Assembly (NCBI GenBank): GCA_002699585.1
Contig: PABP01000009.1
Coordinates: 419,750-483,749 of the forward strand
Direction: 5' to 3'
Length of the DNA: 64,000 bases
Source: Anaerolineaceae bacterium
GTDB lineage: Bacteria > Chloroflexota > Anaerolineae > Aggregatilineales > Phototrophicaceae
The notes below the pieces were generated by a model that ran no database searches, was not told the origin of the DNA, and saw only the letters and a list, made by a program, of their open reading frames with translations. This document shows, piece after piece, positions 6,979 to 29,253 of the stretch. Within the stretch, counting starts at the first letter, position 1. Each line of letters opens with the position of its first letter. Both the position numbers and the translations under genes were made by a program.

Positions 6979-9480
6979 ATGACAACGACGCAAATTAATC
7001 TACCCATCACAGGCATGACCTGTGCCATGTGCGAGAAAAATGTCAACCGCGCGTTATCGCGTACCGACGGCGTGGCCGAGGTCCAGCTCAATCTGGCGAC
7101 CGATAAGGCGCTGGTCAACTTTGATAAATCCACGACTGATTTACAGTCGCTCATTAAATCAGTGGAAGCCGCGGGGTATGGTGTGGCGACCGCGTCCATC
7201 GACCTGCCCATCACGGGCATGACCTGCGCCATGTGCGAGAAAAATGTCTCGCGTGCGCTCAATAAGCCCGATGGCGTCATTGACGTGCAGGTCAACCTCG
7301 CGACAGAACGTGCCCATGTCACCTATGTTCCCGGCGTGGTTCGTCGTAGTGACCTGATTAAAGCGGTTGAAGCGGCGGGCTATGGTGTCGTCGATACGGA
7401 AAATGTTGAATTGCCAGAAGATGCCGAAGCTGCTGCCCGTGCTGCTGAAATTGAGCGTCAACGGCGCTTGGTCATCATCGGCGCGATTTTCACCATCCCG
7501 CTGGTGATTCTCAGCATGACGCGTCACTTTATGCACCAGATTCCCATCATCATGCAAACTGTGCCCTGGCTGGCCGACAACGCCTGGCTGTTCATCTTTG
7601 GCGCGATGGCCACCCCGGTCTATGTCATCCTTGGACGCCAGTACATCACCGGCGCGATCAAGTCCGTTCGGAACGGTACGGCTAACATGGACGTGCTGGT
7701 CGCCCTGGGGTCGTCTGCTGCTTATCTGTATGGGCTGGTCGTGTTGCTGGGGATTGTCTTTAGCTTCAGCGATGTTGTCGGCACGGATGACTACTTCGAG
7801 TCCTCGGCGGTGATCCTGACGCTGATTACGCTGGGTAAACTGCTGGAAGCGCGTGCCAAAGGCCACACCAGCGATGCCATCAAGAAGCTGATGGACCTGG
7901 CGCCCAAGAAAGCCATTCTGCTGCGCGATGGCCAGGAGCAGGAAATCGCCGTAGATGATGTCGTTCCCGGTGACCACCTGGTTGTTCGGCCAGGGGCCAA
8001 TGTGCCTGTCGATGCTGTCGTGGTCGAAGGCCGTTCCAGTGTGGATGAAGCCATGCTGACGGGCGAGAGCATGCCGGTCAATAAAACAGTAGGCGCGGAT
8101 GTCATCGGCGGGACGGTCAACAAGCAGGGTCGCCTGATTATCGAAGCCTCGCGTGTTGGCTCGGAGACCGCTCTCGCACAGATTATCCGTTTGGTGGAGC
8201 AGGCCCAGGGGTCGAAGGCACCTATCCAGCGTATCGCGGATCGTGTGTCATCCTACTTTGTGCCAGCCGTGCTCGTCCTGGCCGTGATTACTTTCCTGGG
8301 TTGGTTGCTGATTGGCCAGATTGGCCTGCCGACAGCCACGCTGCACGCTATCGCCGTGCTGGTGATCGCCTGCCCGTGTGCGCTCGGCTTGGCCACCCCG
8401 ACGGCCATCATGGTCGGGATGGGGCGTGGCGCTGAAATGGGCATTCTGTTCCGTAACAGCGAAGCCCTGGAAAATGCCCATCGCCTGAATGCGATTGCCC
8501 TCGACAAAACCGGGACGATCACGCAGGGCCAGCCGCAGGTGACGCAGGTCGTCAGCGAAGGGTTATCCAAAGATGAGCTGCTGCACTTGGCGGCATCGGT
8601 GGAACGTGCCAGTGAGCACCCCTTAGCTGAGGCCATCGTCCAGGCAGCCAAACATCTGACTCTGGCTCAGCCTCAGAAATTTGAGTCGGTCGCAGGCAAC
8701 GGTGTCCAAGCCCTGGTGGAGGATCGCCAGGTTTTGGTCGGCAGCCCGCGTTTCATGCAGGAAAGCCAGATTGACCTGGAGACGCTTGCGAAGACCATCA
8801 CAGGCGTACAGGACCAGGCCCAAACAGCGGTCGTCGTCGCAGTCGATGGCATCGCCCAGGGTGTGATAGGCATCGCCGATACGATCAAAGCCACGTCACG
8901 GCAGGCCATCGCTGATTTGCAGGCGCTCGGTCTGGAAGTGGTCATGCTGACAGGCGACAACGAGAAAACGGCCAAGTCGATTGCGGCCCAGGTGGGCATC
9001 ACCAGCGTCGTCTCGGAAGTGGTACCCGGTGAAAAAGTGCAGGCGGTTCAGCGGTTGCAGACCGATGAACGTCGCGTGGGTATGGTCGGTGATGGCATCA
9101 ACGATGCCCCGGCCCTGGCCCAGGCTGATGTCGGCATCGCCATTGGTACTGGCACCGACATCGCTATTGAAGCCAGCGATGTGACGCTCATGGGTGGCGA
9201 CTTGGCAGGCGTCCCGCGTGCGATTGCCCTCAGCAAGGCGACCATGCGCACCATCTACCAGAATCTGTTCTGGGCGTTTATCTACAACCTCATTCTAGTC
9301 CCGGTAGCGATGTCCGGCAACCTCATCCCGATGTTCGCCGCAGGTGCGATGGCCTTCTCATCAGTCTTCGTTGTGACAAATTCTCTGAGACTGAGAGGTT
9401 CATCGTTACCGCTTGCTCAGGATTCCGCTCCAGATAGTGTTCAATCGTCTCGTGCTGCTTCATCGGCACCTGCGGCTTAG
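6979..9480 (+). CDS. copA: copper-translocating P1B-type ATPase with two N-terminal HMA domains
   Basis: Two [14 protein letters not shown] motifs, TM CPC motif [22 protein letters not shown]. The ORF tail after NSLRLR (about 9405-9480) is encoded antisense to the recombinase gene and is probably not native. Confidence 0.95.
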
Positions 9481-11632
9481 TCACTTTGAAATCCTTTCCT
9501 CGGAGCTGGGTGATCTTATTACGGATTTTCGCCCAGCTTCGATGAGGTAGAGCGGCACACAGTTCGAGCTGTTCTGCGCCTTCATTCAGCATAGATTCCA
9601 GCATTTCGATTTCATCCTCAACCCAACGGGAACCAGCTTTTCTTGGGTGCTTCCATCCCGTTTTCTCCATTCTTTCGACATAATCGGCATATGTTTCCTC
9701 ATCACGTATTGGTTTGGGTGATATGTGAAACGAGCGCTTGCCGACGATCTCATAGGCTTTGATGCGAATTGCGCGCCAATTACGATTGGGTAGGGCCGCT
9801 GATATTTCTTCCTGTGTCGCTTTTTGTTCAATCAGTTCTTGTAGTGTTTCAACTTCCACAGGAAGCCATAGCGTCCATGTCTTTGCCGACCAGGGAAGCA
9901 CAAAATCATCGACGCTTTCATCTCGCCAGTAGATTTCAACATCAGCTACGCGGTATTTCTCTGTTTGTGTAACGACAATTCGTTCGATGAATACTTGCGC
10001 AACTGCTCGTCTCTCGATCAAACCCATTTGATCCCAGTTTTGCAGAACATTCTCTGCCTTCTGCGCTAGCGCGATTAGAGATTCTTGTTGATCGATGCGC
10101 TGCTCTAGATCGTTGAGTTTTCGCTCAAGTCGCGATTTTTCCTGTTCGTGTTCGGCGAATTGGCGTTCAAGTGCTTGTGCCATTGATTGTGACTGCACAT
10201 AGGAGAAGTTATCGAGTAATGCGGTCATCTTCTGTTCGACAGAAGTAAGCTGATGTTGGAGCATCCGACCTTCCTTGTCGAAGTCATCGCCAGCAGATGT
10301 GAGGACATCTTCCCATACCTGATGGTCAAAGGTCGCCTGAAGTTTAGCAAAAAGCATCTCGTTGATGATTCGATCGAAATAATCACTTCGTCTTGACCAT
10401 AGGTGCTGTTGATTATCGGCACTGTCAGAATAGTTGACGGTATAAGCGTACATTTGCATTCCAACCGTCCAGGAGGCGGTCGCGCCACACCAGGTCTCTT
10501 CGTGATAGCTTCCCACCAGTCCGAGATATATCGGTTCGTCGACGTGTCGTTTTTTCTTCTTGGTTGAATGACGCCGCCCTAATCTGGGTGCATAGCTCTC
10601 GTTAGGTGTGCCGTCTAGGTTGTAGGGCGAAATGTAGTTGAATGCGTGATAGAAAAGATCTTCAGTGACAATCGCCGGATGGTTATTCCACTGAACAACG
10701 CGATCTTTGAATACCCAGTGTCCAAGATACACGGCGTTGGACAGCATGTTTTGTAGGGCAAGCGAACCTACCATGTAGATTCCACCACGCTTGAGCATCC
10801 GCATTGGCTTTGCCCAGGAGAAGCCGGGTGGTATTTCACGCATCAGTTCAGGGTTGTCGAAATCGGGAAAGTGCGGGCCATTATCGTGTAGATAACGCAA
10901 CGTCCCACGCTGGTTGCCACCGAGCATCACGAACGTTTCGAATATCTTTACAACAACTTCAGCACATGGTTCAAAAGGCTGATACTTGCGCCAGTTAGGA
11001 TTGGGGATGCCACTTGGTAGGGATTTACGATCATCGACCATGTAACCGAGGTTGATGTTGCCACCCATCCACAACCCCTGCATTAGCATTCGCTCTTTAG
11101 CGGCGTAAAGTCGCCCACGAACATAAGAATTCAGAAAATCGGCGGCTTGCTCCGCTCGCATACGAAATAGTAAGCGATGGTAGGGGCCTTCGTGTTTATC
11201 TGCGAAGTTGTATTTGAAATAGGGAGTCAATACGCGGATATCATTCTTGACACAAGCATCAAGAAATACATTGACTTGAATCTGTGTTTCATCACGGAAC
11301 AGTCGATCTTCTGCCTGCACGGCAACTGCGCCTATCTGACGGGTGAGCATCAGATCGAACAGGCGGCTCATTCCTTCACGTTCGTCGATGCTCTTTGCGC
11401 CGCTCACGCCTTCGTCTTCGTCAATCAGGACGACATCCTCTTGCTGCCATCCAAGTGACATAACATATCGCGGTAGATCAATCTGCTGCATGTCAGTTGA
11501 AATGTTGCCTACCTGCTTCATGGAGGACTGCCGATAGTAGACGGCAATTGAGCGGTCTGTAGGCAGCATCCCAGGTTGCACAGGCGACGAGTCATCGCTG
11601 CGCTGTGGCTTGTACTTCTTAGCGCCAGGCAT
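9323..11632 (-). CDS. large serine recombinase (integrase), 769 aa, island 1
   Basis: N-terminal resolvase motif [11 protein letters not shown] (catalytic Ser), recombinase and zinc-ribbon/coiled-coil regions, C-terminal duplicated module [18 protein letters not shown] / [18 protein letters not shown]. Paralog of 22509-24572. Confidence 0.9.
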
Positions 11633-11671
11633 GTGGTAAAATCCTTGTGGTCTAGATTATCGGTCTGGACT

Positions 11672-11710
11672 GAAGCCGGGTGTCAGTTTCCTAGGCCGTC
11701 GCCCGGCTTC
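11672..11710. repeat. 9-bp perfect inverted repeat GAAGCCGGG...CCCGGCTTC with 21-nt loop between Xis-like gene and LSR1
   Basis: Read directly from sequence. Inner CCTAGG palindrome. Confidence 0.4.
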
Positions 11711-11751
11711 TTACATCACTGGTCTTGACCAGTGCCTCCATCTTGAGGCAG

Positions 11752-11961
11752 TTATGCCTCCTCCTCATTGTGGCTCGACTTTCTGCGGCGGTTGGGTCTG
11801 CCTGCTTCGATCCACGCTTCTACATCCTCGCGTTTGATAATCCAATTGCGTCCTACTCGTTGTGCCGCAAGAAAACCTGCTTCAATCGCTCGACGTATTG
11901 TGTCGTCATGGCATCCCGCGATTTCGGCTGCTTTCGTCGGGCTGATTAACTCCTCGCTCAT
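11752..11961 (-). CDS. excisionase-family HTH DNA-binding protein (candidate Xis/RDF)
   Basis: MSEELISPTKAAEIAGCHDDTIRRAIEAGFLAAQRVGRNWIIKREDVEAWI matches the HTH_17/AlpA-Xis pattern. Adjacent to LSR1. Confidence 0.65.
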   Translation of the reverse strand: MSEELISPTKAAEIAGCHDDTIRRAIEAGFLAAQRVGRNWIIKREDVEAWIEAGRPNRRRKSSHNEEEA

Positions 11962-12824
11962 ATAAACTCCAGTTAATTCTATTGTACGGGATAATCCGCA
12001 CATTGGCAATGAGGCTATGAGTAGAGTCTACTGCGAGTGATGTAATCTCACGAATTTTTTGATTTCTCTTCCAGATGCTCTTGTTTAAGTGGCACACTCG
12101 ATTGAATGTAGGCATTGATCAGCAACCGATAAGCATTGACCAGATCGAATCTTTTGTTCGCTTTATTTGTTCGGTTCCGTCTTATGATTTGTAATTCTTG
12201 ATCCTGCACTTGGCTCAACTGGTGATCCTCCTGAATGTGTGCTGTAGTGATTGGTAACTTGCCTTAGAAAATGACAGACAAGATGGGATGTGTCACATTC
12301 AACTGCTGGAAAAGCCCTTGGGTTGATTCCTGCTCAACCGATGTTAATCGATGGCCAGGAACATGGTTGGCTTCGACAGGGGGTTCATGTGACTCAGGTA
12401 GTGAAATTATGCTACTCATTGCGTTTCCTCTTGTTTTACGCATGAATCGAGCTTATCACAGCGGCTATACGGTTTTTTGGAAATATCCAATTTTGTCCTG
12501 GCAATTGTCAGATTTTGCAAAGCAAAAATTCACTCAGCCATGTTTCATGAACAGATTCGGATCTTTATCGAAATTGAAGTGCGCTTGTTGTACGCTGATG
12601 TTCTCGAGGTAGAAAAACGGGTAGAGGTAATGCTGAGGTTTACAGTCGTGGACCGCAGGCTTTCCTCCATATATGTTTTCTAGTAACTCCTTGTTGAACT
12701 GTATGAATGTTGCAATCGATGATGACGAATTCATCAAGCGCTGGAGCAATGAAGATGTAACCGAGTCTGAGCTGACTTACTGTTTGGTTCAGATATACAT
12801 TGTTAATGAATCGAAGGAACTGAT

Positions 12825-14906
12825 ATGACCGATATTCAAGAAGCACTGCGACAATTCGATCTTGAAGCGCATCGCGAGTATTTCGAGACAGGCGACCGTG
12901 AACGCGCTCAGATGTTGGAACATTTTCCGCTCGAACGCTGGCCGACGATGACGCTTGAGGAATATGCGCTGGGACAAAGCCGCCCAAACGAAGATGTGTA
13001 CTGCTGGTGGCTGGAGTTCGGCACAAAGAATCTCGTCAACATTGGCGGTGCAACTGCCATCAAGCACATGATTTTTTATCACAGCGACGGCTACTGGAAG
13101 CACCTCAGCGCCTATCCCGACAAGGATACAGCCTGGGAAGCCATTCACGGCGAGTTTGTACGGCTGTTTGAACTCGCGGAAGCTCAGAATTGGGAGCAAA
13201 TGGACGCTGAAGACCTGTTCAACCGGGGCAGTCGCACGAAATTGAAATCGCTGTACCTCTATTATCCCCACCACATTATCCCCATCGTGGCTCCGCAGCA
13301 CATGAAACACTTTTTGATGCTGCTTGGTGATGATGAAGCTGATTTGAAGGGGCTTTCATCGATACTTCTGAACCGCCGCTTGCAGCAGAAATTACACACT
13401 TTCCCCGAAGCTCAGCAGTTTTCGACTCGCGAACTGATGCGGTGTTTATATGAGTGGGATGATCCACGCAAGGACGACACCATCACGACCTATTCTCAGA
13501 AGAGGCAGGATGATGTTCCACCCGACGAGCAGAAGCCATCCGATCTTTTTCTATCTATCGCTGATGCGCTCGAACGCAAAGGGCAAGTCATCCTTCATGG
13601 TCCACCGGGGACGGGGAAAACCTACCAAGCGCTGCGTTTTGCTGAATGGTGGTTGGCACGTTCTAACGGACGTACGCTCGATGATCTCACAGCGCGTCAA
13701 ACGCCACGTCGAGTCTGGTGGGTTGTGGCGAATCCCAAACAGTGGCATTGGGATGATCTGTTCACGGATGGCAGCGTTGAGTACAAGTATGGTCGCCTGA
13801 AGCGCAATTATCCACTGGTTCAGCCCGGTGATCTGGTGGTCGGGTATCTGGCCGCACCCGACAAGCGTATCTATGCGCTGGCGCGAGTGACCGAAGGGTT
13901 ACACGGTAAAGACGGTGATCCACGAATCACGCTTGCGCCTGTTCATCGAATCGAAAATGGCCTGACCTATGCGGAACTGACTGAAGATTCAACACTCAAT
14001 CAATCCGAGCCAATCTACAATCGCTGTCAGGGCACGCTGTTTAAGCTGGAAGAACGTGAAGCGGACTACCTGTTGAGTTTGCTCGCCGAGCGAGACCCGA
14101 AAATCGAGGACTACATCGACCAATCCGGGACTCAGGCAGATACGCAGAATCAACTGACGCTGGTCACGTTCCATCCATCGTACAGTTATGAAGACTTCAT
14201 TGAGGGCTTTCGCCCACAAGATACAGGTGAAGGGCTGCGCTTGCGGTTGGCGGACGGTCTTTTCAAAACTGTCTGCGCCACAGCCCGCGCAAACCCGGAA
14301 CGCAAATATCTCGTTCTTGTTGACGAGATCAATCGTGCGAATCTGGCAAAGGTGTTTGGTGAAATCATCACACTGCTGGAGCGCGACAAACGCGGTGTTC
14401 CGGTGGTACTGCCCCAGAGTAAAGAGCCGTTCAGCGTGCCGAAAAACGTTTACATGTTGGGCACGATGAATACATCGGATCGCAGTATTCGACTGATGGA
14501 TGCAGCCCTGCGGCGGCGTTTTGGCTTCATTGAAGTGATGCCCGATCTTACTCTCCTGCGTGGGGCGCAGATCGACGGTGTACTCGATCTCTATGATTTC
14601 CTGATGGTGCTGAACACGCGGGTCAGCCGCACACAGGGACGCGAAAAGCAAATCGGGCATTCGTTCTTCCTGGAAGATGGTCAACCGATCAGCGATGGCT
14701 CGGAATTTGCCCGGCGTTTCCGTCAGGAAGTCCTGCCACTGCTACAAGAATACTGTTATGACGATTATGGGGAACTGGCGGAGTACATCGGGGTCGATCT
14801 GGTCGATGTAGAAAATGCCGTGTTGCGGGCAGACCTGTTGCACGATGATGAGAAACTTGTATCGGCCCTGTCCGAGTTCACGTCAGCACCAGCAGGAACA
14901 GCATAA
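12825..14906 (+). CDS. mcrB: McrB-family GTPase (type IV restriction) with EVE/PUA-like insertion in the GTPase domain
   Basis: Walker A ILHGPPGTGKT, McrB signature FHPSYSYEDFIEGFRP, LVLVDEINRANLAKVFGEIITLLE, MLGTMNTSDRSI. About 150 extra aa between Walker A and the SYSYEDF motif contain WWVVANPKQW...GDLVVGYLAAPDKRIYALARV, which looks EVE-like. Confidence 0.85.
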   Translation: MTDIQEALRQFDLEAHREYFETGDRERAQMLEHFPLERWPTMTLEEYALGQSRPNEDVYCWWLEFGTKNLVNIGGATAIKHMIFYHSDGYWKHLSAYPDKDTAWEAIHGEFVRLFELAEAQNWEQMDAEDLFNRGSRTKLKSLYLYYPHHIIPIVAPQHMKHFLMLLGDDEADLKGLSSILLNRRLQQKLHTFPEAQQFSTRELMRCLYEWDDPRKDDTITTYSQKRQDDVPPDEQKPSDLFLSIADALERKGQVILHGPPGTGKTYQALRFAEWWLARSNGRTLDDLTARQTPRRVWWVVANPKQWHWDDLFTDGSVEYKYGRLKRNYPLVQPGDLVVGYLAAPDKRIYALARVTEGLHGKDGDPRITLAPVHRIENGLTYAELTEDSTLNQSEPIYNRCQGTLFKLEEREADYLLSLLAERDPKIEDYIDQSGTQADTQNQLTLVTFHPSYSYEDFIEGFRPQDTGEGLRLRLADGLFKTVCATARANPERKYLVLVDEINRANLAKVFGEIITLLERDKRGVPVVLPQSKEPFSVPKNVYMLGTMNTSDRSIRLMDAALRRRFGFIEVMPDLTLLRGAQIDGVLDLYDFLMVLNTRVSRTQGREKQIGHSFFLEDGQPISDGSEFARRFRQEVLPLLQEYCYDDYGELAEYIGVDLVDVENAVLRADLLHDDEKLVSALSEFTSAPAGTA

Positions 14907-16180
14907 TGCCGACTGTAGAATTGCAGGAGTGGGGAGATACCTTCCTGCCGAATGTCGTGCTATCCTCAGGTGATCGACGACTGGCACAAACCTTGCAGGG
15001 CGTTGAAATCCGTGAGATGCGCGATGGCTTGTACATCAAAGCATCATCCCGGATTGGTGTTGTGCGATTTGAAGCGTTTGTATTGCGTATCCGCCCGAAG
15101 CTGACCAACATTGATGTCATGCGAATGCTGCTCGTTGCTGGTGGTTTAAATCGCTTAAAACGATACCGTGCGACACGTGATTATGAACTGCGTGATACGA
15201 ATATGTCGTTGTTTGATCTCGTCGCGTTATTGCTGGCAGACACCTGTACGGTTATTGCCAGAGATGGTTTACTGCGCGGCTATGTCGTCGAGGAATATGA
15301 TCTACCAGTTGTGCGTGGTCGGCTGCGGTTCACCGATCAGATTCGACGGCGTTACGGGCAGGTGAACCGGCTGGAGTGTCGCTTTGATGATCATCATGCC
15401 AATGTCGTTGAAAATCGCATTCTGCACACTGCGCTTGCGCTATGCCGTCGCTATGTTCAGCATCCTCACGTTAGAAATCGAATTCAACGGCTGTTGGATA
15501 CTTTCGCCGCTGTCAGTCAACCACTTGACCAGAACTGGCGGACTGTGCAAGCCGATATGGCTTATAACCGGCTCAACTCACGTTACAAAGAAGCACACAC
15601 ACTTGCCTGGATCATCATGGCTGGATTGAACATCGAGGATCTATTGGCAGCAGGCTGTTCACGCGGGTTTGCATTTTTGCTGGATATGAATCCATTATTC
15701 GAGAAGTTCATGGAAATACTTATCCGACACATTTTGCGGAATGACTCCATCGCGGTTCAAGCGCAGTTGACAGCCACGGGTCACATCTGGGATGCTGAAC
15801 GCAATCAAACCTACAAGCGTCTTCGTCCTGATCTATTGCTAACCAATTTGGATTGTCTCAGTTTGGCAATCGATGCCAAGTACAAGCGATACGACGCAAA
15901 GAAGCTACATGAGAGCGACATCTACCAGACGTTCCTGTACACTTATGCTTTTCGCAGTGCCGACGTTGATATGCTGCCATCGGCACTGATTGTGTATCCC
16001 TCCGACATGCCATCTACCGGAATGACCCGTCTGCATATCCGCGACAGTCGAGGTACAGTGCAAGCACGATTGCACGCCTTTGGCGTAGACATTCCCTCGA
16101 TGCTCGATGAACTATTTGATGACACAGTACAAAAATCTACCTCGGTGTTGCGGGAGGCTATCAGGTATCTGCTGACTTAG
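14906..16180 (+). CDS. mcrC: McrC-family PD-(D/E)xK nuclease subunit
   Basis: Start overlaps the mcrB stop (TAATG). C-terminal RPDLLL...IDAKYKRYD nuclease motif. Confidence 0.75.
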   Translation: MPTVELQEWGDTFLPNVVLSSGDRRLAQTLQGVEIREMRDGLYIKASSRIGVVRFEAFVLRIRPKLTNIDVMRMLLVAGGLNRLKRYRATRDYELRDTNMSLFDLVALLLADTCTVIARDGLLRGYVVEEYDLPVVRGRLRFTDQIRRRYGQVNRLECRFDDHHANVVENRILHTALALCRRYVQHPHVRNRIQRLLDTFAAVSQPLDQNWRTVQADMAYNRLNSRYKEAHTLAWIIMAGLNIEDLLAAGCSRGFAFLLDMNPLFEKFMEILIRHILRNDSIAVQAQLTATGHIWDAERNQTYKRLRPDLLLTNLDCLSLAIDAKYKRYDAKKLHESDIYQTFLYTYAFRSADVDMLPSALIVYPSDMPSTGMTRLHIRDSRGTVQARLHAFGVDIPSMLDELFDDTVQKSTSVLREAIRYLLT

Positions 16181-16282
16181 TGAAATAGGTTTAGAGCTAC
16201 AGTTTCAACCTAAGCGAAGCAAAAAAACAGCTGGCGAACGTGCCTGCTCACACTTTCACCAGCCGATGTGAAGTCATCGAAA

Positions 16283-17179
16283 TCAAAAAGAGACAGCCCG
16301 TCCATAGGCTGTCTCAAGGCGTTTCAACGCTGCGCGTCGGTAGCGCGTCACTGTTCGTCGCTCGTTCTCACAGGTGACGAAATGCCGTACTTTTGCTTGT
16401 GTCGATAACGTATACAGTGCGGCTAAGGCCAGCGGACGATCCTCATAGTGCGTCACTACCTCTAGATACGGCGCGATCTCACCGTTATCGAAACGTTCGC
16501 GCCAGGTGCGCCGCTTTTCGGGTTTGTACTCTGCTAGCAGCGTCTGCAACCGCTCCTGGATCTGATCCAACCGTGCATATACCGACGACTGCGGCAGATT
16601 GTGCGCATTGATCGTCTGCAACGGCTTAGCATCCGTCGTGAGGATATAAAGCGCGACTAAACCAGTGATGTCATCAGCATAGTGCTGGGCAATAGTCGTG
16701 ATCGCTCGCTCGATGTCGAACTGAACATCGATCCGGGTAGCGAAGCCTGCCCAGCGTTCTTTAGCATCCCAGAGCTGCAAACGTGAATCATCACCGTGCA
16801 CACCGTATTCATCAACATCCATGCCAGTATTCGCCTGGATGTCGGCGAAAAAATTGTAACGCTCTTGCTTATCGACAATCACCATGCAGCTACAGACTGC
16901 GATCGCTCGCCAGACCGTGCGCGTCAGAGCATCACACGCCAACAGTTCTGGTTCGTCGGTCAGCTTGAGCCAGAGCTTCATCAGCCCGGTCTGCACGCTG
17001 TCGGGAATGTCCTGTCCGAACACGCCGAAGCGCGTGATCTTCTTCGCCATCAGTGGCCCTATACGCTCAGCAATGGCGTCAAAGGTCATTGCACCGCCCC
17101 AACCGGTGGGATAGGTTGCGATTTTCGGAAACGGCTTGATCTGACTACGAATCTTGCTGCGGAATGTTGATTCGGACAT
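16283..17179 (-). CDS. sigma-70/ECF-like protein (region 2 and region 4 like), island 1
   Basis: DIPDSVQTGLMKLWLKL resembles ECF region 2.2. LVALYILTT...LPQSSVYARLDQIQERL resembles region 4. Paralog at 28360-29253. Confidence 0.45.
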   Translation of the reverse strand: MSESTFRSKIRSQIKPFPKIATYPTGWGGAMTFDAIAERIGPLMAKKITRFGVFGQDIPDSVQTGLMKLWLKLTDEPELLACDALTRTVWRAIAVCSCMVIVDKQERYNFFADIQANTGMDVDEYGVHGDDSRLQLWDAKERWAGFATRIDVQFDIERAITTIAQHYADDITGLVALYILTTDAKPLQTINAHNLPQSSVYARLDQIQERLQTLLAEYKPEKRRTWRERFDNGEIAPYLEVVTHYEDRPLALAALYTLSTQAKVRHFVTCENERRTVTRYRRAALKRLETAYGRAVSF

Positions 17180-19975: not shown

Positions 19976-20452
19976 TTACACTTTATTTGACAAAGCGCTC
20001 CACCTGCAAAGATGGTCAGGATAAATCGAGTGCATGAGGCGATGAGAACGCAGCGGCAGGGAGGTGGATAGTGTAGCGAACGTCAAACCCTTCCGATAAT
20101 CGGCTGAGCGGTCACGGACCACGATTTCAACTTCAAGATGGGCTGCAAACCAGGTCTGGATGTCCTCTGCCAGACTACCGTTCACCCGTTCGACCACCCG
20201 CCTCGTTTCCTGATCAATCATCATGCTCCCGTAGCGATGTCCTTTGCGGATTGCCCAGTCATCCAAGCTCACCACCCGTGGACAAGTATCGTTGACAAGC
20301 GCTGTTTGTTTCACGATCCGCAAGATCGTGTCACCACTGGTGATGATCTGAAAACAGCGGAAGATGCGTCGCGCACTCTCTGCGCTGACTTCAAAGCCAA
20401 CCCGACGCATGACCTGCGTCAACCGTTCAGTCCGCCGAGCATAGGGCGACAA
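19976..20452 (-). pseudogene. ISL3-family transposase internal fragment
   Basis: VVSLDDWAIRKGHRYGSMMIDQETRR matches the ISL3 DDE-region motif (VLGVDDFAxRKGHxYxTV). Lacks N- and C-terminal parts. Confidence 0.6.
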
Positions 20453-20695
20453 CCAGTCGGGAAACCGTTCAGCATAAAGTGCGGAAGTTCCAAAATTTCG
20501 GTGATTCGTAAAAAATCAGTTCGCTTTGTGGTATACGAACATTTGTGCTATATACTAGAGAGATAAAGCGTCAGAGAAGGGACGAAGTTATGCCGACAAT
20601 CACCATTGGTGCAAAAGTCGTCGGGCAGAAACGCCCGCTGTTTACAGACTACTGCTTTCCACTGTTACCCGATGTTATGGCATTACCCCGATAAG

Positions 20696-22482
20696 ATGGT
20701 TCTTCCGCACTTTGATGTTGTTGGCGAACCCCTGTTTAGGTTTAAAAAGGTCTATACTGGTAGAAAAACGGGGTGCGTAGAGAATTAAGGGGGATGCTCA
20801 TGTCACTGCCAAAACAAGCGATTGAATCGGTGCCCGAAGACACGGCACAAGTTGCTCGGAAAGCATTTCCAAAGGGCAATCCGTATATCCAGATACGTGA
20901 TCAGTTGGGCACGATTTACACCGATGAGATTTTCGCGGATTTGTATCCGCCTGATGGTCACCCCGCGATCCGTCCCTGGCGACTAGCGCTGGTCACGGTG
21001 ATGCAATTTGCTGAAAATCTGACGGATCGTCAGGCAGCTGACGCAGTACGGGACCGTATCGCCTGGAAGTATGCCCTGAGTTTGTCGTTAACGGATGCCG
21101 GCTTCGACTATTCGGTGCTAAGTGAATTTCGTCAACGCCTGTTGGATCATGATGCTGCACAGCAATTACTCGATGTGATGCTGAAACAATTTTCTGAGCA
21201 GGGTTGGCTGAAAACACGTGGTAAGCAACGCACGGACTCGACGCACATTTTGGCGGCCATTCGACGACTCAACCAACTGGAATTGGTACATGAAACGTTG
21301 CGTCACGCGCTCAATGAATTGGCTGCTGAAGCGCCAGCGTGGCTCAGGCAACGGGTCACTGCGGATTGGTTCGATAGCTACAGCCAGCGCACGAGCAACT
21401 ACCTGCTCCCGAAGAAAGATGCTGAGCGTAAAGCCTGGGGGAACGGGTCGGGCAGGATGGTCTTTATTTGCTGGAGCAGGATTATGCGGGGGGTCATCAT
21501 CCGGAACTGGCGCAATTACCTGCTGTAGAAATGTTGCGACAGGTATGGATGCAGCATTTTTATCAGCTTGAAGAGCAAGTTTGTCTGTGTGAGAAACGCG
21601 ATCAGCCGCCTGCGTCACGCCTGATCACCTTATCTTCTTATGATCCCCAAGCGCGATGTAGCGCCAAGCGCAACGTCACCTGGGACGGCTACAAAGTGCA
21701 TTTGACTGAGACCTGTGATGACGACACACCCAATCTGATTACCAACCATGAAATGCGTCCATCCACCGAACCGGATCATGATGCCACGGAGGTTATTCAT
21801 GACCATCTGGTGGTCAATGGTTACGCACCCAGAGAACATTTTGTGGATCAGGGGTATATGTCGATCGATCATGTGGTTCAACAGGCTCAGGACGGTATTG
21901 ATTTGATGGGTGCGGTTCCCGATGACAATAGCTGGCAGGCTCGCCATGGTGGTTATGATAGTCGCCAATTTGTTGTCGACTGGGACAATGAACAGGCTGT
22001 TTGTCCACAAGGGCACGACAGTTGCAGTTGGTCATTGGCACAAACACGCTCGCAGCGTCCAGTCGTGAAGATCAAGTTTCGACATCGAGATTGTGCCCCA
22101 TGTCCTGCGCTGAACTTATGCGCCAACAATCATGAGAAACGGCGCACCTTGACCATTCTTGCGCCGCAGACTCTTTACGAGGCCCAGCAAGTAGCCCGTC
22201 AACGGCAGCAAACCACGAACTTCAAAACAGCATGTCACGTCCGTGCAGGTGTGGAAGGAACCGTGTCGCAAGCAGCCCATGCTCTTGGCGCACGGCGATC
22301 ACGCTACCGAGGCATGGACAAAACCCATCTCCAGCATCTGGGCGTTGCTGCGGCTATTAATCTGTTACGCATCGTCAATTGGCTGGATGATGTCCCGCCT
22401 TCCAAAACACCTCAATCGCGTTTTGCGCAGCTGGCCGCCTGATGAAGGGTTCGCCAAAAACATCAAAGTGCGGAAGAACCAT
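20696..22482 (+). mobile_element. IS1182-family insertion sequence with 38-bp imperfect terminal inverted repeats (36/38)
   Basis: IRL 20696-20733 ATGGTTCTTCCGCACTTTGATGTTGTTGGCGAACCCCT. IRR 22445-22482 is its reverse complement with 2 mismatches. Confidence 0.8.
20800..22442 (+). pseudogene. IS1182-family DDE transposase split by a frameshift in a G5 run (21437-21441)
   Basis: Frame 1 gives ...KDAERKAWGNG. A frame shifted by 1 nt continues GERVGQDGLYLLEQDYAGG..., so a single ORF is restored by a 1-nt shift at GCCTGGGGGAAC. Confidence 0.7.
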
Positions 22483-22508
22483 TAAATTAGGGTATTGCCA
22501 GATCTAAC

Positions 22509-24572
22509 TTATGCCGAAACCCAATGGGGAGATAGGCATGTATCAGTAGAGGGATAACTCAACATGGGTTGTTGCACAACACCCACCAACACCCCTTCAT
22601 CCTCGGCGGTGGTCGCAGCAGCTTCCGACGCTGCTTCCTCAGAATCTTCCCATTTCGTATCACGCGGATACTTCTTCTCGCCGCTATACGACTTCCACCA
22701 ACCTTTGCCGTAGTGATAGCGCATCCGCTGGGTGAGTGCCCGCCACGGATAGTCCGGGAAGGCTCGCAGGATGTCTATCTGGTCGGCATCAGCGTCGAAC
22801 ATGGCCTTCAGCCGGTCGAGGTCTTCCTCATCCCAGAAGTAGCCGATGCTGCGATGTGTCGTGCTTTCGGTCGTGGTCGAGCCGTCACGCCAGTGGACGA
22901 TGGTGATCTTGGTATGGCGGGTCACCTTCGAAATGTTTGCGTAGGACGCGAACGCCTCGAACAACTCACGCCGTTCCTGACGCGGGACATCCTCCCAGCG
23001 GTCGATGACGGTTTCCAGCACGGGTTTGGCATCGGCAAGGTTGACCTGCTTGCGTTCACCCGACTTCAACCGCGACCATTCCGCCTGCAATGACTCAAGC
23101 TCCAACTCCAGCGAGCGATAACGAGCCTCTGCCCGTTCGACCATCTCTGGATGGCTCAGGGTAGCTAGACTGCTAATGAGGTTGTCTTTCGACGCTTCCG
23201 CCTGACGGATGGCTGCTTCCAGCCGCCGGACTTCGGCATGATCGCCGTCTTCCATCGTCGCCAGGGCTGCCTGCCACGTCGCTTCGTCGATGGTTGTCGC
23301 CTTCAGCCGTTGCAACAACATCCGGTCGATAATGGCATCCACGATGAAGCACTTGATGTTCCAGACATTCGACCGCTCGTACTCGTAAAGTTGATACTGG
23401 TACTTCTCAGCCGATGTGTTCCACACCGTCGCTAAACGGTGATGGGGATCGTCTGGCAGGTCATCCGAGTAGAGCAGGTTGCTGTAGGTCGGTGGGTCTT
23501 CATTGCGGTCGGCTTTGTTGTGCCGCGTCCAGGGACGGTAGGGCACGTAGTCGGCGTTGGGATTGCCATAGAAGTCAGCAGGGGAGATGCGGTTGAAGGC
23601 ATATAGAAAGAGGTCATTCGGGATGATCGCCTCGTGGTTGTGCCACTCGACAATCACGCCCTGGTGAATCCAGTGTCCGATGTAAGCCACATTGATGAGC
23701 ATCCCTTGCAAACCGCTGTAGGACGGCGTGAGACCACCGGTGTGCTTCGAGCGACGCTTGAGGTGATCCGTCACTTTGAATCCATCGGGCATGTCCTCTG
23801 CCGTCAGGTCAGGGAAGTACGGACCGTGCTGCTCGATCTGCCGCCACGTTTGCTTTAGATTGCCCTCGTTCTCACGGAATAACTCGAAGTACGCCAGCAC
23901 CACATCGGCGTAGAGGTCGAAACGGCTGTACTTGCGCCACTCCGGGTTGCGACTGCCATCGGGCAGCTTCTCCCGCATATCAACCATGAAGCCGGGCGTG
24001 ATCTTGCGTCCCGCCCACATGCCACGCTCCTTGCGCCAGTGACGTGCTTTCACTAACCGACCCCGCACATGGTAGTCGATGTAATCGGCGGCACGCTGTG
24101 CCTGGTCGCGGAACATCTGCATGTGATAGCGACCCTGGGTTGGGTGTGCAAAGTCATAGACAAACGTCGGTGTGAGCACCAGCACGTTGTTGCGGCGGCA
24201 GGCATCAATGAAGATGTTCGGCTCGATCTGCGTCATATCGCGGAAGAAGCGATCCATATCCTGAGCCGCCACCAACCCGATCTCGCCGTTCTCGATCTGG
24301 CGATAGAGCAGGGACATGCCCGGACGCTCACTAATCTTCTTCTGTCCGCTGATACCTGCATCCATGTCGATCATGTTGATTTGTTCACGCTGCCAGCCCT
24401 GTGCGATGAGGTGTTCCACCATATCCACCGTTTGCAGGGTAGTGGAGATGTTGCCGATTTGTCCCTCCGAGGACTGCCGGTAGTAGACCGAAACAGGTTT
24501 GCCGAGTGGCAGGGGTTGTGCCCTATACGGATCAATCGACGCGGTTTCAGGGCGTTTGAGTGTTCTGACCAT
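22509..24572 (-). CDS. large serine recombinase (integrase), 687 aa, island 2
   Basis: SVYYRQSSEGQ catalytic motif. Collinear similarity to LSR1 (GNISTxxQ, QGWQxE, GxSGxKxIxEREGMSxL...). AAGGAGG RBS. Confidence 0.9.
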   Translation of the reverse strand: MVRTLKRPETASIDPYRAQPLPLGKPVSVYYRQSSEGQIGNISTTLQTVDMVEHLIAQGWQREQINMIDMDAGISGQKKISERPGMSLLYRQIENGEIGLVAAQDMDRFFRDMTQIEPNIFIDACRRNNVLVLTPTFVYDFAHPTQGRYHMQMFRDQAQRAADYIDYHVRGRLVKARHWRKERGMWAGRKITPGFMVDMREKLPDGSRNPEWRKYSRFDLYADVVLAYFELFRENEGNLKQTWRQIEQHGPYFPDLTAEDMPDGFKVTDHLKRRSKHTGGLTPSYSGLQGMLINVAYIGHWIHQGVIVEWHNHEAIIPNDLFLYAFNRISPADFYGNPNADYVPYRPWTRHNKADRNEDPPTYSNLLYSDDLPDDPHHRLATVWNTSAEKYQYQLYEYERSNVWNIKCFIVDAIIDRMLLQRLKATTIDEATWQAALATMEDGDHAEVRRLEAAIRQAEASKDNLISSLATLSHPEMVERAEARYRSLELELESLQAEWSRLKSGERKQVNLADAKPVLETVIDRWEDVPRQERRELFEAFASYANISKVTRHTKITIVHWRDGSTTTESTTHRSIGYFWDEEDLDRLKAMFDADADQIDILRAFPDYPWRALTQRMRYHYGKGWWKSYSGEKKYPRDTKWEDSEEAASEAAATTAEDEGVLVGVVQQPMLSYPSTDTCLSPHWVSA

Positions 24573-25190: not shown

Positions 25191-26699
25191 TCAGGGTTTT
25201 TTCCAGATGGTAATGCTTTTACGCAGGGCTTCTCGTCCAAAACGTCCCATCTGCTGACTGCTGTTCCCCTTGCGCTGCGGCAGAATATAGACCTTCTCAG
25301 GACTGAAACCGAGGTCTTCAGCGATGGACGTGGTAAGCAGGTCGACGGGAATGATCTCACCGCCATAGCGAACATTATCGTTGACGAAAGCGATACGTGC
25401 GTCACATCTTGCCGTTCTGAGGATTTCGGCAAACACAAAGGTTAGTTCGATGAAATACCCCTCAACCATCGGCAGTATACCCCGGTTGTTGATCTCACCC
25501 CGTTCCCAACGGATTTGTAGTGCCTCATTGATCTCTTTGAATACGGGATTGCTCAAAACTGTTTGCAGGATATGCTCAAAACGCTCAGATTGTCCCAGTG
25601 AACGGTAATGAGCACGAAGCTCATCGACTTTCGAGTTATGTTCAACCGTGCAGGATAGTTGCTCCTGGCGAAGTTTACGAATGCCTTCCTCGCCTGCTCC
25701 GAGATAGGCAATCTCAAGGGCGTAGGTGCGCGTATAATCGTAACGATTGCAGTACGGTGGTGATGTGATGACACCCGCAAATTGATCTGCTTCCAGCGTG
25801 GGCAATACCTTCAGACTACTTCCCTGAAGAAGTTGCTGGCTGCTTCCAGTGACTTGCTGCTGTTGGATAATCTCAATGTCCTCGATGACGGTAAACATTG
25901 CGGCAAGTAGGGCTTCCTTAACGGTAGGGAGGTCGCCTTTGTGCATTCCCTTGATGGGTAATTTGCCATTTTCCTCGCGCTTGCGATTGCGAGCCTGCAC
26001 TTTTTCTGCTCGGCGATCCCACCGAAGGTATTGTCCATCTTTGCGCGTGTAGCTGACTTCCTCCAGGATACTGGTTAGAAGCAGGCGAAGCAGTATCTTT
26101 GTTGATCCACTGAAATCGGACTGCTCGACCCAATCCGTGTAGTACATCAATGCGCTTTCCTCTTCTTCAGGAAACGCAGTCTGCGTAATCACAAGATGGG
26201 GAAAAGAACGTGAGGCTTTGCCCGGTTCACTCAATTTGATTTGCTGATAAATGTCGCGCAACTCAGCCACATCATAGTTAAATACATGTGACTTTGCCCG
26301 CCAGGTCAGGTGGCAATTCGGCAGGATTTCGACTCCCACAGCACTAATGCCCCGACTCTTTGCTACCAGTAGTGTTGTGCCTGATCCGTTGAACGGTTCC
26401 AGTAGCGTATCACATGGCTTGATGTCAAACTCATCAATGAGACGATCCACCAGTTCAGCGGAAAAGCCCTCCCTGTATTTGATCCAGCTATGGAGCAGTT
26501 GTCCCTTATTGCCCTGAAAGCTGACCGTTCGGCGGTCAAACTTGTCCGTCTCTTCAAATAAATCCCGGTAACGCTCTTCTAGTGCTAGTCTTGCGGTTTC
26601 ATCGGCGACACCATCATGTGAGAATGAATCACGGACGACAGCCTGGCCTGATGAAAATGGTGTCAACTGGTCATCATTGAATAAGGGTAATTGTTTCAC
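25191..26699 (-). CDS. DNA amino-methyltransferase (N6-A or N4-C), motif I then motif IV
   Basis: LLEPFNGSGTTLLVA (FxGxG, AdoMet binding) and VITSPPYCNRYDY (SPPY catalytic motif). Confidence 0.8.
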   Translation of the reverse strand: MKQLPLFNDDQLTPFSSGQAVVRDSFSHDGVADETARLALEERYRDLFEETDKFDRRTVSFQGNKGQLLHSWIKYREGFSAELVDRLIDEFDIKPCDTLLEPFNGSGTTLLVAKSRGISAVGVEILPNCHLTWRAKSHVFNYDVAELRDIYQQIKLSEPGKASRSFPHLVITQTAFPEEEESALMYYTDWVEQSDFSGSTKILLRLLLTSILEEVSYTRKDGQYLRWDRRAEKVQARNRKREENGKLPIKGMHKGDLPTVKEALLAAMFTVIEDIEIIQQQQVTGSSQQLLQGSSLKVLPTLEADQFAGVITSPPYCNRYDYTRTYALEIAYLGAGEEGIRKLRQEQLSCTVEHNSKVDELRAHYRSLGQSERFEHILQTVLSNPVFKEINEALQIRWERGEINNRGILPMVEGYFIELTFVFAEILRTARCDARIAFVNDNVRYGGEIIPVDLLTTSIAEDLGFSPEKVYILPQRKGNSSQQMGRFGREALRKSITIWKKP

Positions 26700-27931
26700 G
26701 TTGGGTTTCCAGTTTCATCTAACGTCATTTCAAAGAACGCTACCATCTGATTCAAGAAATCCTGCTGCATAGCGGGATCGTTAGCGATTTTTGTCAGATT
26801 ATGGACACTCGCCAACTTTCCCTGTTGTAACCAGAGTGCGGCTTCCTGTGCGACGCGATCTACGAGGATTGTTGCCATAAACGAAAGTTGCGGTATCGGA
26901 CGATGTGTCTTTTCAGCAGCATCGATCATGCGGTTGAACGCCTGCGTCGCTGTCTTCCAATGTTCATCTGAACCAGCCGGGTCTGCACCGCCTTTCAATT
27001 CAGCAGCCCAGGGAAAAGTATCAGACGGTATTTCGGTGATGAGATCGGGGCCAATTCGATAGCGTCGCTTCGTTTCCTCATTATGCCAGTACATCTGACG
27101 ATTGAGCAGCACACTGTTGCCGTTCGTCAGGTTGATCTGTCGATAGACAATCCGTTGGTCTTCGAGATCCGAGAGCAGGGTAGCCACTTCCTGTTCAGAG
27201 CGTCCTTGTAGTTCCACTTTCTGAATCTTCCCGTTATCGTTTTCATCCTCGTCTTCGAGAACGATGCGCCCCTTGACCTTGAAGATGATGCTTTTTAACT
27301 TTTGAAGGCGATGTAAATGGAGCACGATGGGCGAAATCACCGAAATATAGGCCAGTCGTCCAACCTCATTACGCCAACCACCGTCCAGACTCGCGCCAAT
27401 GTTGATGTACACCATTTCCAGATGACGCCGCTGCCCATATAGTCCAGTTTCCATAACCAGTGCGCTGGTAATCTTGTTGAGATGCTGAGCGATGGCCTGA
27501 GCCTTGTCTACACCGAGCGGCATACTGATCTCGTGTTGCGTCGTGTCTAATCCGATGTTGTTCATCACCTTGTTTGAGATCATTGCGACATTACGATAGT
27601 AGAGTACGAGGCGAGGCTCTCGCACGAGATCACCTGGTAAACAGAAATAGTAGGGATACGGAACAGGTGGATCATGGGCATCAAGCGTATCGATTGCAGT
27701 GGGGGAAATACCAGCAGCCTCGGCGCGTTCACGCCAGAGTTCCATATCATATTCTCTACCAAGTTGCTCAATGTCTTGGACAATGCCATCAACATCCAGC
27801 GCCGAGAGGTTCTTCAGGAAAAAGAGACCCCGGCGCACCGAGTTTTCACGAACTGCCTGAAGGATTTCCTCCTGTGTGCTTGCGTATTGGGTGTAGTCGT
27901 CTTGTTGCGATGCATTGGGTTGATCGGTCAT
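26696..27931 (-). CDS. putative restriction endonuclease partner of the methyltransferase (unassigned fold)
   Basis: ATGA start/stop overlap with the MTase gene suggests translational coupling. No recognisable family. Start taken at MTDQPNAS (the ORF extends to 27991). Confidence 0.35.
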   Translation of the reverse strand: MTDQPNASQQDDYTQYASTQEEILQAVRENSVRRGLFFLKNLSALDVDGIVQDIEQLGREYDMELWRERAEAAGISPTAIDTLDAHDPPVPYPYYFCLPGDLVREPRLVLYYRNVAMISNKVMNNIGLDTTQHEISMPLGVDKAQAIAQHLNKITSALVMETGLYGQRRHLEMVYINIGASLDGGWRNEVGRLAYISVISPIVLHLHRLQKLKSIIFKVKGRIVLEDEDENDNGKIQKVELQGRSEQEVATLLSDLEDQRIVYRQINLTNGNSVLLNRQMYWHNEETKRRYRIGPDLITEIPSDTFPWAAELKGGADPAGSDEHWKTATQAFNRMIDAAEKTHRPIPQLSFMATILVDRVAQEAALWLQQGKLASVHNLTKIANDPAMQQDFLNQMVAFFEMTLDETGNPT

Positions 27932-28025
27932 AAATTCTTCTACAAGGGCTGTTGCTGAATAAATAAGGTTCTGTTTCCTATCATAGCACAAAGATTTTCA
28001 AGCATTCGAGGACTTATGCCCCAGC

Positions 28026-28359: not shown

Positions 28360-29253
28360 CTAAGCGACACAACAGTATGCGATGGCGAGTTTCTTCTTGA
28401 TCTTCTTCCGGTAGTAGAAGATCATCTTGTGTTCTTTCTCGTCGCGGGCGAACTTCTTCACCTTTGCCTTGGTGGTCAGCGTGTAAATCGCAAACAGTGC
28501 CAGTGGACGATCCGAGTAGTGTTCGACCACCTGGAGATACGGTTCGATCTCGCCTGCATCGAGTCGTTCCTGCCAGGTGCGTGGCTGGATCATCGGCTCG
28601 TACTCCTTCAGGATGCGCTGAAGCCGGTGCTTGATCGCTGTCATACGCTCGTAGACCATCGAGTGCGCCAGATTATGCGCTTCCAGTGCCGCCTTCGAGT
28701 CAACACTGGTCGTCAGGATGTAGAGCGCGACCAGTTCCTTAATGTCGTCAGCGTATTCTTCGGCAATGGCGTGGATCGCGTCGGTAATGTCCAGCCGGAA
28801 GTCAATCTTCGTTGCCCACGGTGCCCAGCGTTCCGAGGACTTCTGCCAGGCGGTGGGGGATGAGTAGCCCGGAATGCCGTACTCGTCCACGTCCAGCGCC
28901 AGCTCACCTTCGATATCAGTGAAGGGGAGATACTTCTTGTTTTGCTTCTGAAGCGTGGTGGACTTGCTGATCGCCAACGCACGCCACATCGCCCCAAAGA
29001 TACCGACATCTGCCAGCAAGTTCGGGTCTTCGACCAGTCGCATCCACAGACGCATCAGCCCGGTCTGGATGCTGTCGGGGATATCCTGGCCATAGTTGCC
29101 AAAACGCTTCAGTTTGTTCGCCATCATCGGCGACAGGCACTCTGCGATCTCCTCGAAGGTGAGGTCGCCACCCCAGCCTGTCGGATAGCGCGGCGTGTGC
29201 GGAAATGGCTCGATGGACTCACGGATTTTGCTACGGGTTGTTGCTTCAGACAT
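28360..29253 (-). CDS. sigma-70/ECF-like protein, island 2 paralog
   Basis: Collinear with 16283-17179 (PTGWGG, GQDIPDSxQTGLMxLW, LVALYILTT...). Confidence 0.45.
   Translation of the reverse strand: MSEATTRSKIRESIEPFPHTPRYPTGWGGDLTFEEIAECLSPMMANKLKRFGNYGQDIPDSIQTGLMRLWMRLVEDPNLLADVGIFGAMWRALAISKSTTLQKQNKKYLPFTDIEGELALDVDEYGIPGYSSPTAWQKSSERWAPWATKIDFRLDITDAIHAIAEEYADDIKELVALYILTTSVDSKAALEAHNLAHSMVYERMTAIKHRLQRILKEYEPMIQPRTWQERLDAGEIEPYLQVVEHYSDRPLALFAIYTLTTKAKVKKFARDEKEHKMIFYYRKKIKKKLAIAYCCVA

Follow-up and report, generated by a model that had tools for sequence, protein, structure and literature searches.

A McrB-family GTPase with an EVE domain inserted between the Walker A helix and strand β2

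Among modification-dependent restriction systems McrBC is the archetype, and the readers of its McrB subunit are viewed as interchangeable N-terminal add-ons. In the McrBC system of Escherichia coli K-12 (EcoKMcrBC) the reader is an N-terminal DUF3578 domain located outside the GTPase. Among the EVE fusions of prokaryotes, that of an EVE-superfamily reader to McrB is the most frequent, and such readers are likewise the most common fusion partners of McrB (Bell et al. 2020, PMC7641849). In PcdA and other EVE-McrBs the EVE domain is N-terminal. Here we describe a McrB homologue in which a complete EVE domain lies inside the AAA+ GTPase fold, in the loop that joins the Walker A helix α1 to strand β2. 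The protein is encoded in a stretch of 64,000 nt (hereafter the window) of an Anaerolineaceae bacterium (assembly GCA_002699585.1, contig PABP01000009.1, positions 419,750-483,749 of the forward strand).

The window system has the two-gene operon of EcoKMcrBC, the same AAA+ motifs and lid domain, and a McrC with a PD-(D/E)xK motif. It differs from EcoKMcrBC in having another N-terminal domain and an EVE domain in the α1-β2 loop. With the YTH-McrB of Thermococcus gammatolerans (TgMcrB) and with the N-terminal EVE-McrB fusions it shares an EVE-superfamily reader fused to a McrB GTPase and expected at the rim of the ring. VcaM4I is a restriction enzyme whose EVE domain flips 5-methylcytosine (5mC) or 5-hydroxymethylcytosine into a hydrophobic pocket (PMC7897488); unlike the window McrB it is a single-chain, NTP-independent EVE-HNH endonuclease with the EVE domain at the N-terminus. 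An insertion within a McrB-family GTPase domain is also present in CnuB of Type I-A CoCoNuT systems (Bell et al. 2024, PMC11090510). However, the CnuB insert consists of helices located between Walker B and NxD, and CnuB is a member of the NxD clade, which has coiled coils, whereas the window insert is a globular EVE domain between Walker A and β2 in the NxxD clade. An identification of the window proteins as CnuB and CnuC was rejected because the signature is NxxD rather than NxD and the model contains no coiled coil.

The only published allusion to such a layout that we found is one generic sentence in the same paper (Bell et al. 2024, section 6) on inserts in McrB GTPase domains, which were removed before tree building. 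This sentence names no site, fold or clade, the only insertion described in detail being the helical one of Type I-A CoCoNuTs, and the supplement texts mention neither EVE nor inserts. In the literature that we searched, the coverage of which is incomplete, no explicit description of an EVE domain between Walker A and β2 was found. The embedded-EVE McrB is genuine, selected, widespread and essentially undescribed. Also new here are sister McrBs with an upstream EVE domain, the monophyly of the inserted group, and a clean loss form. A complete reader domain can thus sit inside the AAA+ fold just past the P-loop helix and persist there under strong selection across phyla. The forms with EVE outside the fold and with its precise loss are natural controls that allow the effect of reader placement on specificity, DNA path and GTPase control to be tested.

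The GTPase fold and its insert

An earlier note on the window, made from the sequence alone, had read one open reading frame (ORF) as a McrB GTPase. This reading was correct, with exact coordinates and a product of 693 aa. The protein has a Walker A motif of the GxxGxGK[TS] type, a Walker B motif of the hhhhDE type, and the McrB signature MNTSDRS (residues 548-554), whose N549 and D552 are invariant across the family. It matches McrB sequences from the PDB at E 7e-48 (phmmer), its GTPase core is about 40% identical to E. coli McrB (EcMcrB), and the full-length model matches the TgMcrB and EcMcrB structures (6ut5, 6hz4) with a Foldseek E-value of about 1e-15. The database record for the exact window protein includes the McrB_lid family PF28529. 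The NCBIfam McrB model is matched at E 3.8e-46 with 157.8 bits, below the E. coli equivalog cut-off of 637; by these scores the window protein is to be regarded as a homologue of E. coli McrB rather than its equivalog.

The Pfam AAA_5 match falls into two stretches, with about 160 aa separating them between α1 and β2. Residues 441-566 make up the best stretch (profile 25-139), and several P-loop families match residues 245-280 only. In phmmer alignments with PDB sequences, residues 246-272 (GQVILHGPPGTGKTYQALRF) correspond to TgMcrB 17-43, and residues 433-487, which contain LTLVTFHPSYSYEDFIEGFRP, correspond to TgMcrB 46-101; the counterparts of the two blocks in EcMcrB are 23-54 and 64 onward. 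About 160 residues are therefore found in the window McrB where solved McrBs have approximately 3-10. The alignment register assumed in the earlier note agrees with these comparisons. The note gave about 175 residues between Walker A and the SYSYEDF motif; the measured Walker A-to-FH spacing is 182 residues, compared to 23-30 in canonical McrBs, and the spacing argument of the note is correct. The spacing is about 23 in EcMcrB (from the PDB-search alignment), 24 in the sister McrBs with an upstream EVE domain, and 30 in the loss form, P0029 (both described below). In canonical McrBs the AAA+ domain is contiguous and the reader domains are outside it; the split in the window protein defines a variant and does not exclude the protein from the McrB family.

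In the full-length model, with a mean predicted local distance difference test score (pLDDT) of 87.2, β1 occupies residues 254-259, α1 residues 265-281 (pLDDT about 91), and β2 residues 444-448. Foldseek alignments with McrB structures run across the insert (that with the 285-residue chain 6hz4_E, for example, has 436 columns and a template modelling (TM) score of 0.72), and EVE structures are matched separately. As modelled, the β1-α1...β2 core is intact and the GTPase is folded around the insert. The position of the insert within the AAA+ fold proposed in the earlier note is thus in agreement with both the split AAA_5 match and the model.

The same note had assigned the insert to EVE/PUA-like domains from the strings WWVVANPKQW and NYPLVQPGDLVVGYLAAPDKRIYALARVTEG, both of which are indeed present in it, and had left it to HMM searches and structure prediction whether this is a separate PUA-like barrel or a common McrB loop. 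Pfam EVE (PF01878) matches residues 297-418 (profile 2-144 of 145, E 3.1e-5) above the gathering score (24.4 bits vs 23); other family members score 33-37 bits. A profile of the insert family only reaches 2gbs at just E 0.034. A broader profile, with sister-clade domains included, matches 2gbs at 5.7e-8, 1zce at 5.1e-7 and 2ar1 at 2.4e-6, and its top five matches are all EVE structures. Together with the Pfam match, these hits exceed what chance would give.

Residues 276-445 were modelled with AlphaFold2, with 24 homologous segments as input, at a mean pLDDT of 81.5 (about 90 in the core). The order of elements in this model, β-α-β-α-β-β-β…β-α, agrees with that of the EVE β-barrel fold (βαβαββββ). 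In a Foldseek comparison with the PDB the first 12 matches are all of the EVE family, with 2ar1 the best (E 2e-8, TM 0.72). Further EVE matches are 2g2x, 2eve, 2gbs, 1zce, 2p5d, VcaM4I, PH1033 and THYN1 with 5mC DNA; ASCH and YTH structures come after them. Two DNA-bound EVE readers, THYN1 and VcaM4I, are among the closest structural neighbours. Two independent structure-comparison methods thus confirm that the insert, as modelled, is a separate EVE (PUA-like) barrel inside the AAA+ fold and not a common loop. An intein or a mobile intron was also considered and dropped, since the insert is an EVE barrel by two structure comparisons and is conserved as protein.

Near-invariant motifs of the insert are WW.VANP..W.W, GR…NY, GDLV.GY, SEP and QGTLF.L. 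Its most conserved residues fall in the classic EVE motifs: WW.VANP in β1, the aromatic residue equivalent to W26 of 2eve, GDLV.GY, and QG[ST]LF in the last strand. The column equivalent to 2eve W26 is always aromatic, Y or F (Y320 in the window protein). In the full-length model pLDDT is below 50 only at residues 289-292, at residues 434-440 and in the C-terminal tail. Both linkers that flank the EVE domain have low pLDDT, are poorly conserved and vary in length, the N-terminal one being about 12 aa longer in 850-aa forms of the protein; therefore, a flexible tether is favoured over rigid coupling to the P-loop. The ratio of nonsynonymous to synonymous substitution rates (dN/dS) relative to the closest orthologue is 0.039 for the insert, 0.040 for the GTPase part after the insert and 0.087 for the N-terminal domain. 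These values indicate that the insert is under purifying selection as strong as that on the GTPase core.

Distribution and origin of the layout

At E ≤ 1e-10 the search with the full-length protein gave more than 1,500 homologues, and in nearly all of the best 120 Walker A and β2 are separated by 177-197 aa. When one genome per species was scanned, the insert layout was found in 55 genomes, all of them metagenome-assembled genomes (MAGs), from at least ten phyla. The groups with the insert include Chloroflexota, Acidobacteriota, Gemmatimonadota, Planctomycetota, Latescibacterota, Rokubacteria, Actinomycetota, Bacteroidota, Bacillota, Verrucomicrobiota, Gammaproteobacteria and others. The closest of these genomes is an Anaerolineaceae MAG (96% identity over the insert), and the exact window protein is recorded on six contigs. 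At nearly all loci the N-terminal domain, the Walker A block, the insert and the rest of the GTPase are in a single frame, directly followed by McrC where the locus extends far enough. DNA similarity to the closest relatives spans the region from the mcrB start to the mcrC stop (approximately 12815-16160 of the window); therefore, the mcrBC cassette is the conserved unit. In six MAG loci (L029, L033, L049, L050, L052, L054) the mcrB homologue is broken into two to four frames, which could be pseudogenes or sequencing errors in long-read assemblies.

We also searched the insert profile against 1.84 billion representatives of clusters at 50% identity, which gave 889 clusters at E ≤ 1e-3 and 490 at E ≤ 1e-10. 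Among the best 150 clusters, 59 have the order Walker A-EVE-β2 and nine more are fragments consistent with it; 59 is a lower bound for the number of clusters with the inserted layout. In about 48 of the 150 the EVE domain ends 35-45 aa before Walker A, and the Walker A-to-β2 spacing is the normal 24 aa. The earlier note had suggested a survey of McrB homologues for the same insertion point, and the 55 genomes and at least 59 clusters are its outcome. It had also called the architecture unusual. This holds in comparison with characterised McrBs, but the architecture is not unique, as it defines a monophyletic clade in MAGs of at least ten phyla.

The internal position of the EVE domain is easily overlooked. 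A flat Pfam listing gives the order DUF8426, EVE, AAA_5, McrB_lid, by which this position is concealed, and NCBI names some members of the family “EVE domain-containing protein”. Flat “EVE, AAA_5” listings mimic N-terminal fusions, and only a check for the split AAA+ match will keep surveys of McrB architectures from miscounting these proteins.

The best matches of the insert profile without the inserted layout are McrBs with an EVE domain directly upstream of Walker A. According to segment-wise BLAST, the inserted and the upstream-EVE groups are built of common parts: DUF8426 (PF28530), an EVE subtype and a related GTPase core. Between the groups the EVE domains are 30-35% identical, end to end and with motifs in common, and the GTPase cores are 38-41% identical; many members of both groups also have the N-terminal domain. 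The sister DUF8426-EVE-McrBs (for example, P0203, P0208 and P0225) resemble the window protein in EVE subtype, GTPase core and overall length. The sole difference between the two groups is the order of the EVE domain and the β1/P-loop/α1 segment, which is reversed in the sister McrBs relative to the inserted clade; DUF8426, in addition, is missing from the window lineage.

Most members of the inserted clade are of about 850 aa (for example, P0023, L059 5001-7550), with an extra DUF8426 of about 160 aa between the N-terminal domain and the GTPase. The 693-aa window lineage has lost DUF8426 since the rearrangement. An hhalign comparison of DUF8426 with EVE gave a probability of 18%, with just a short GD-LVV motif aligned. 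Two further variants were noted: in P0174 the GTPase is preceded by two tandem EVE domains, as in Staphylococcus aureus PcdA, and in P0237 an additional insertion of about 85 aa divides the inserted EVE domain, which is matched at 162-234 and 319-390.

For the GTPase core we computed neighbour-joining (NJ) trees, with E. coli McrB, rebuilt from the PDB-search alignment, as the outgroup. All 100 bootstraps recover the inserted group, to which P0029 belongs, as monophyletic, and in 74 of 100 the upstream-EVE group forms a paraphyletic assemblage surrounding it. The inserted layout most likely arose once, by an exchange of places between the EVE domain and a β1/P-loop/α1 segment of about 45 aa. 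As the nearest relatives of the embedded EVE domain are the upstream EVE domains of the sister McrBs, a swap of domain order fits better than a foreign insertion, and a single local rearrangement in a DUF8426-EVE-GTPase ancestor would be the most economical scenario. The direction and mechanism of the rearrangement we infer; a possible route would be a duplication of the EVE-plus-P-loop segment with a subsequent loss of the outer copies.

P0029, a protein of 534 aa, is 56% identical to residues 1-282 of the window McrB and 75% identical to residues 443-686. It is without exactly residues 283-442 (junction …RFARWWLTQSEG-GATEYD-AEQLTMVTFHPSYSYEDF…). It keeps the N-terminal domain, is encoded in an intact mcrB-mcrC operon (L056 6001-8912) on a 1.13-Mb contig, and has the window protein as its nearest neighbour in the GTPase-core tree. 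Most simply, P0029 would be a product of a secondary, precise loss of the EVE module. Its gap delimits the insert to residues 283-442 and shows that the GTPase stays a McrB without the module. The neighbourhood of P0029 is another defence island, with a BsuBI/PstI-type type II restriction-modification (R-M) system and a resolvase.

Proposed function and its alternatives

The window McrB may have two target-recognition modules, a PD-T4-1-like N-terminal domain and the EVE domain. The N-terminal domain (residues 1 to about 215), which the earlier note had rightly taken as separate from the insert, is modelled at pLDDT of about 95. Its residues 3-212 match the PADLOC model of PD-T4-1 (profile 9-214 of 383, E 1.3e-21), that is, the non-nuclease half. 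PD-T4-1 (Vassallo et al. 2022) defends against T4 with a single protein that has a PD-(D/E)XK nuclease; the nuclease class is taken from two papers later than Vassallo et al. 2022, in the main text of which PD-T4-1 is not discussed. The N-terminal domain of about 210 aa is common to both proteins. In PD-T4-1 it is joined to the nuclease in one protein, whereas in the window McrB it is joined to the GTPase and the nuclease half is absent. The window McrB shares a domain with PD-T4-1 and is not a member of that system. The domain is kept across the McrB clade with 30-60% identity. None of the 16 members searched has a Pfam match in it even at E ≤ 1, and no PDB sequence match at E ≤ 10 and no attributable PDB fold match were found. 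Its homology to an anti-T4 protein makes the domain a second candidate reader that is worth studying; it is probably a DNA-targeting module.

With the GTPase and nuclease motifs intact, the window system should be a working McrBC, as predicted from sequence. We consider it probable that it is a Type IV McrBC with an embedded EVE reader on rim tethers, which originated from a single swap. In such a two-gene Type IV (modification-dependent) cassette McrB would be a hexameric GTP-driven motor and McrC a PD-(D/E)xK nuclease. The EVE barrel would hang on its two flexible linkers at the outer rim of the ring. β1 and β2 of the ASCE fold start at the same sheet edge; therefore, a reader upstream of the GTPase and a reader in the α1-β2 loop should be neighbours, and such neighbouring positions would explain the tolerance of the swap. 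The rim site would be near the N-terminal reader domains of TgMcrB, whose YTH domain density decorates the outside of the hexamer edges (Niu et al. 2020, PMC7680126). EVE domains are PUA-like readers, and those characterised flip modified cytosine into a pocket of aromatic residues; by analogy with them, the embedded EVE domain may bind modified bases. Its job is most likely that of an N-terminal EVE or YTH reader, i.e., it would recruit the motor-nuclease to modified foreign DNA. After the swap the layout would have spread across many phyla, with the module remaining cleanly losable.

A number of observations weigh against this proposal. The Pfam EVE score of the window domain barely exceeds the gathering score, and the precomputed domain record for the exact window protein lists no EVE domain. 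The column equivalent to 2eve Y82 and VcaM4I W82 is variable (H360 in the window protein), and a residue-by-residue mapping of the pocket was not achieved: P24, W82 and Y130 of VcaM4I are unplaced on the insert, as is Q128. P0029 keeps the system without EVE, so that the main reader may be the N-terminal domain. Where EVE sits on the hexamer is deduced from fold topology. For the polarity of the rearrangement we rely on NJ trees that have one distant outgroup, rebuilt from an alignment print-out, and no intermediate of the rearrangement, with EVE in both places or with the P-loop segment duplicated, was found among 270 proteins. Every member of the clade comes from an uncultured organism.

Several of these points would be accommodated if the EVE domain were degenerate, i.e., if it served as a structural or oligomerisation module with no base reading, and the target were recognised by the N-terminal domain (plus DUF8426 in the longer forms). 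The borderline Pfam score, the unconserved canonical pocket position, the retention of the N-terminal domain and McrC in P0029, and the occurrence of the N-terminal domain in a validated anti-T4 nuclease all speak for this. We nevertheless consider it quite unlikely, as the top-conserved residues of the insert lie in the classic EVE motifs, its dN/dS is equal to that of the catalytic core, and the closest structures include the DNA-bound readers THYN1 and VcaM4I. The insertion point immediately after the Walker A helix suggests a different role, that of an allosteric sensor, in which a flipped modified base would signal mechanically to the nucleotide site and directly gate GTP hydrolysis or translocation. 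The two attachment points limit the freedom of the domain more than an N-terminal tether does, and the layout, kept under strong purifying selection in at least ten phyla, is at least not deleterious. However, the linkers at 289-292 and 434-440, with their low pLDDT, poor conservation and variable length, are typical of flexible tethers; the sister McrBs function with this EVE subtype located outside the fold; and P0029 has lost the module with its flanks otherwise unchanged. Besides, the GTPase of E. coli McrBC is stimulated by McrC, and DNA binding and hydrolysis are treated as separable in vitro (PMC7680126). An allosteric role is therefore unlikely. If true, it would provide a built-in substrate checkpoint beyond the reach of N-terminal readers, and the swap across the P-loop would be a natural working template for engineering sensors into AAA+ motors.

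An artefact of mis-assembly, of a frameshift fusion of two genes, or of a chance EVE-like match in a lineage-specific loop is refuted as the source of the architecture. The modest single-sequence Pfam score and the few frameshifted related MAG loci could be cited in its favour, but the same continuous frame is seen in independent assemblies (six contigs, 55 genomes and dozens of 50%-identity clusters), and two independent structure-comparison methods confirm the EVE fold.

The locus and its surroundings

The coordinates of the mcrBC operon and of the neighbouring modules are given in Table 1. The ATG of mcrB is preceded at 8 nt by a ribosome-binding site AAGGA. As stated in the earlier note, mcrC follows with a TAATG overlap and encodes a D-x-K motif: it starts inside the mcrB stop codon with a 1-nt overlap (junction GCATAATGCC). 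McrC matches PF10117 over the full length of the profile (1-318 of 318, E 2.3e-50) and NCBIfam McrC at E 2.7e-28. In a promoter and terminator scan of 11900-16400 the counts were not above those in shuffled sequence.

Table 1. Features of the mcrBC operon and of the two recombinase-bearing modules (window coordinates)
Feature	Position	Strand	Basis
mcrB, 693-aa McrB-family AAA+ GTPase	12825..14906, stop codon included	+	ORF, Pfam, NCBIfam, PDB matches
McrB N-terminal domain, mostly helical, residues 1 to ~215	12825..13469	+	model, PD-T4-1 profile match
AAA+ first segment: α0, β1, Walker A, helix α1, residues ~236-282	13530..13670	+	alignment with TgMcrB 17-43 and EcMcrB 23-54
Walker A GPPGTGKT, residues 259-266	13599-13622	+	motif
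Inserted module, residues 283-442: EVE domain between two flexible linkers	13671..14150	+	
EVE fold core, residues 297-434	13713-14126	+	model
GTPase remainder: β2, Walker B, NxxD signature, McrB lid domain	14151..14903	+	EcMcrB 64-284, E 5e-44
β2 motif FHPSYSYEDF, residues 449-458	14169-14198	+	motif
Walker B VLVDEINR, residues 497-504	14313-14336	+	motif
NxxD signature N-T-S-D, residues 549-552	14469-14480	+	motif
mcrC, 424-aa McrC nuclease subunit	14906..16180	+	Pfam McrBC PF10117, NCBIfam McrC
McrC PD-(D/E)xK motif D309...D323-A-K325	15830-15880	+	motif
Module 1: large serine recombinase 9323..11632, mcrBC, 52-bp conserved sequence 16215-16265, 298-aa gene 16283..17179	9323-17179		
Module 2: large serine recombinase 22509..24572, R-M pair, 52-bp conserved sequence 28270-28321, 298-aa-type gene 28360..29253	22509-29253		
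Module 2 cargo: N6_N4 methylase; BsoBI-like endonuclease	25191..26699; 26696..27991		

The mcrBC cassette is flanked on one side by a large serine recombinase together with an HTH_17 gene and on the other by a 298-aa gene. Another module of similar build is located 6 kb downstream, with a BsoBI-like type II R-M system as cargo in place of mcrBC. The recombinases of the two modules are 34% identical, the paralogous genes of about 298 aa are 51% identical, and the 52-bp sequence is 90% conserved between the modules; the genes of about 298 aa have no Pfam or NCBIfam match. The same order of recombinase, mcrBC and 298-aa gene is found in an Aggregatilineales MAG (L002). The two modules look like a mobile-element family of recombinase-bearing elements with exchangeable defence cargo.

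The type II R-M pair (25191-27991), with its methylase of the N4/N6 family, is 9 kb from the Type IV mcrBC. The McrBC readers must tolerate any methylation that this methylase may place on host DNA, which would constrain their specificity. Between the two defence modules there is an ORF of 750 aa (17497-19749) with a hydrophobic N-terminus and no Pfam match. An ISL3 transposase fragment (19976..20452) was also detected, as was an IS5-like element (20678-22500) with 54-bp inverted repeats (20678-20731 and 22447-22500; 87%) and its transposase in two ORFs, DUF772 (20773..21528) and DDE_Tnp_1_6 (21468..22442).

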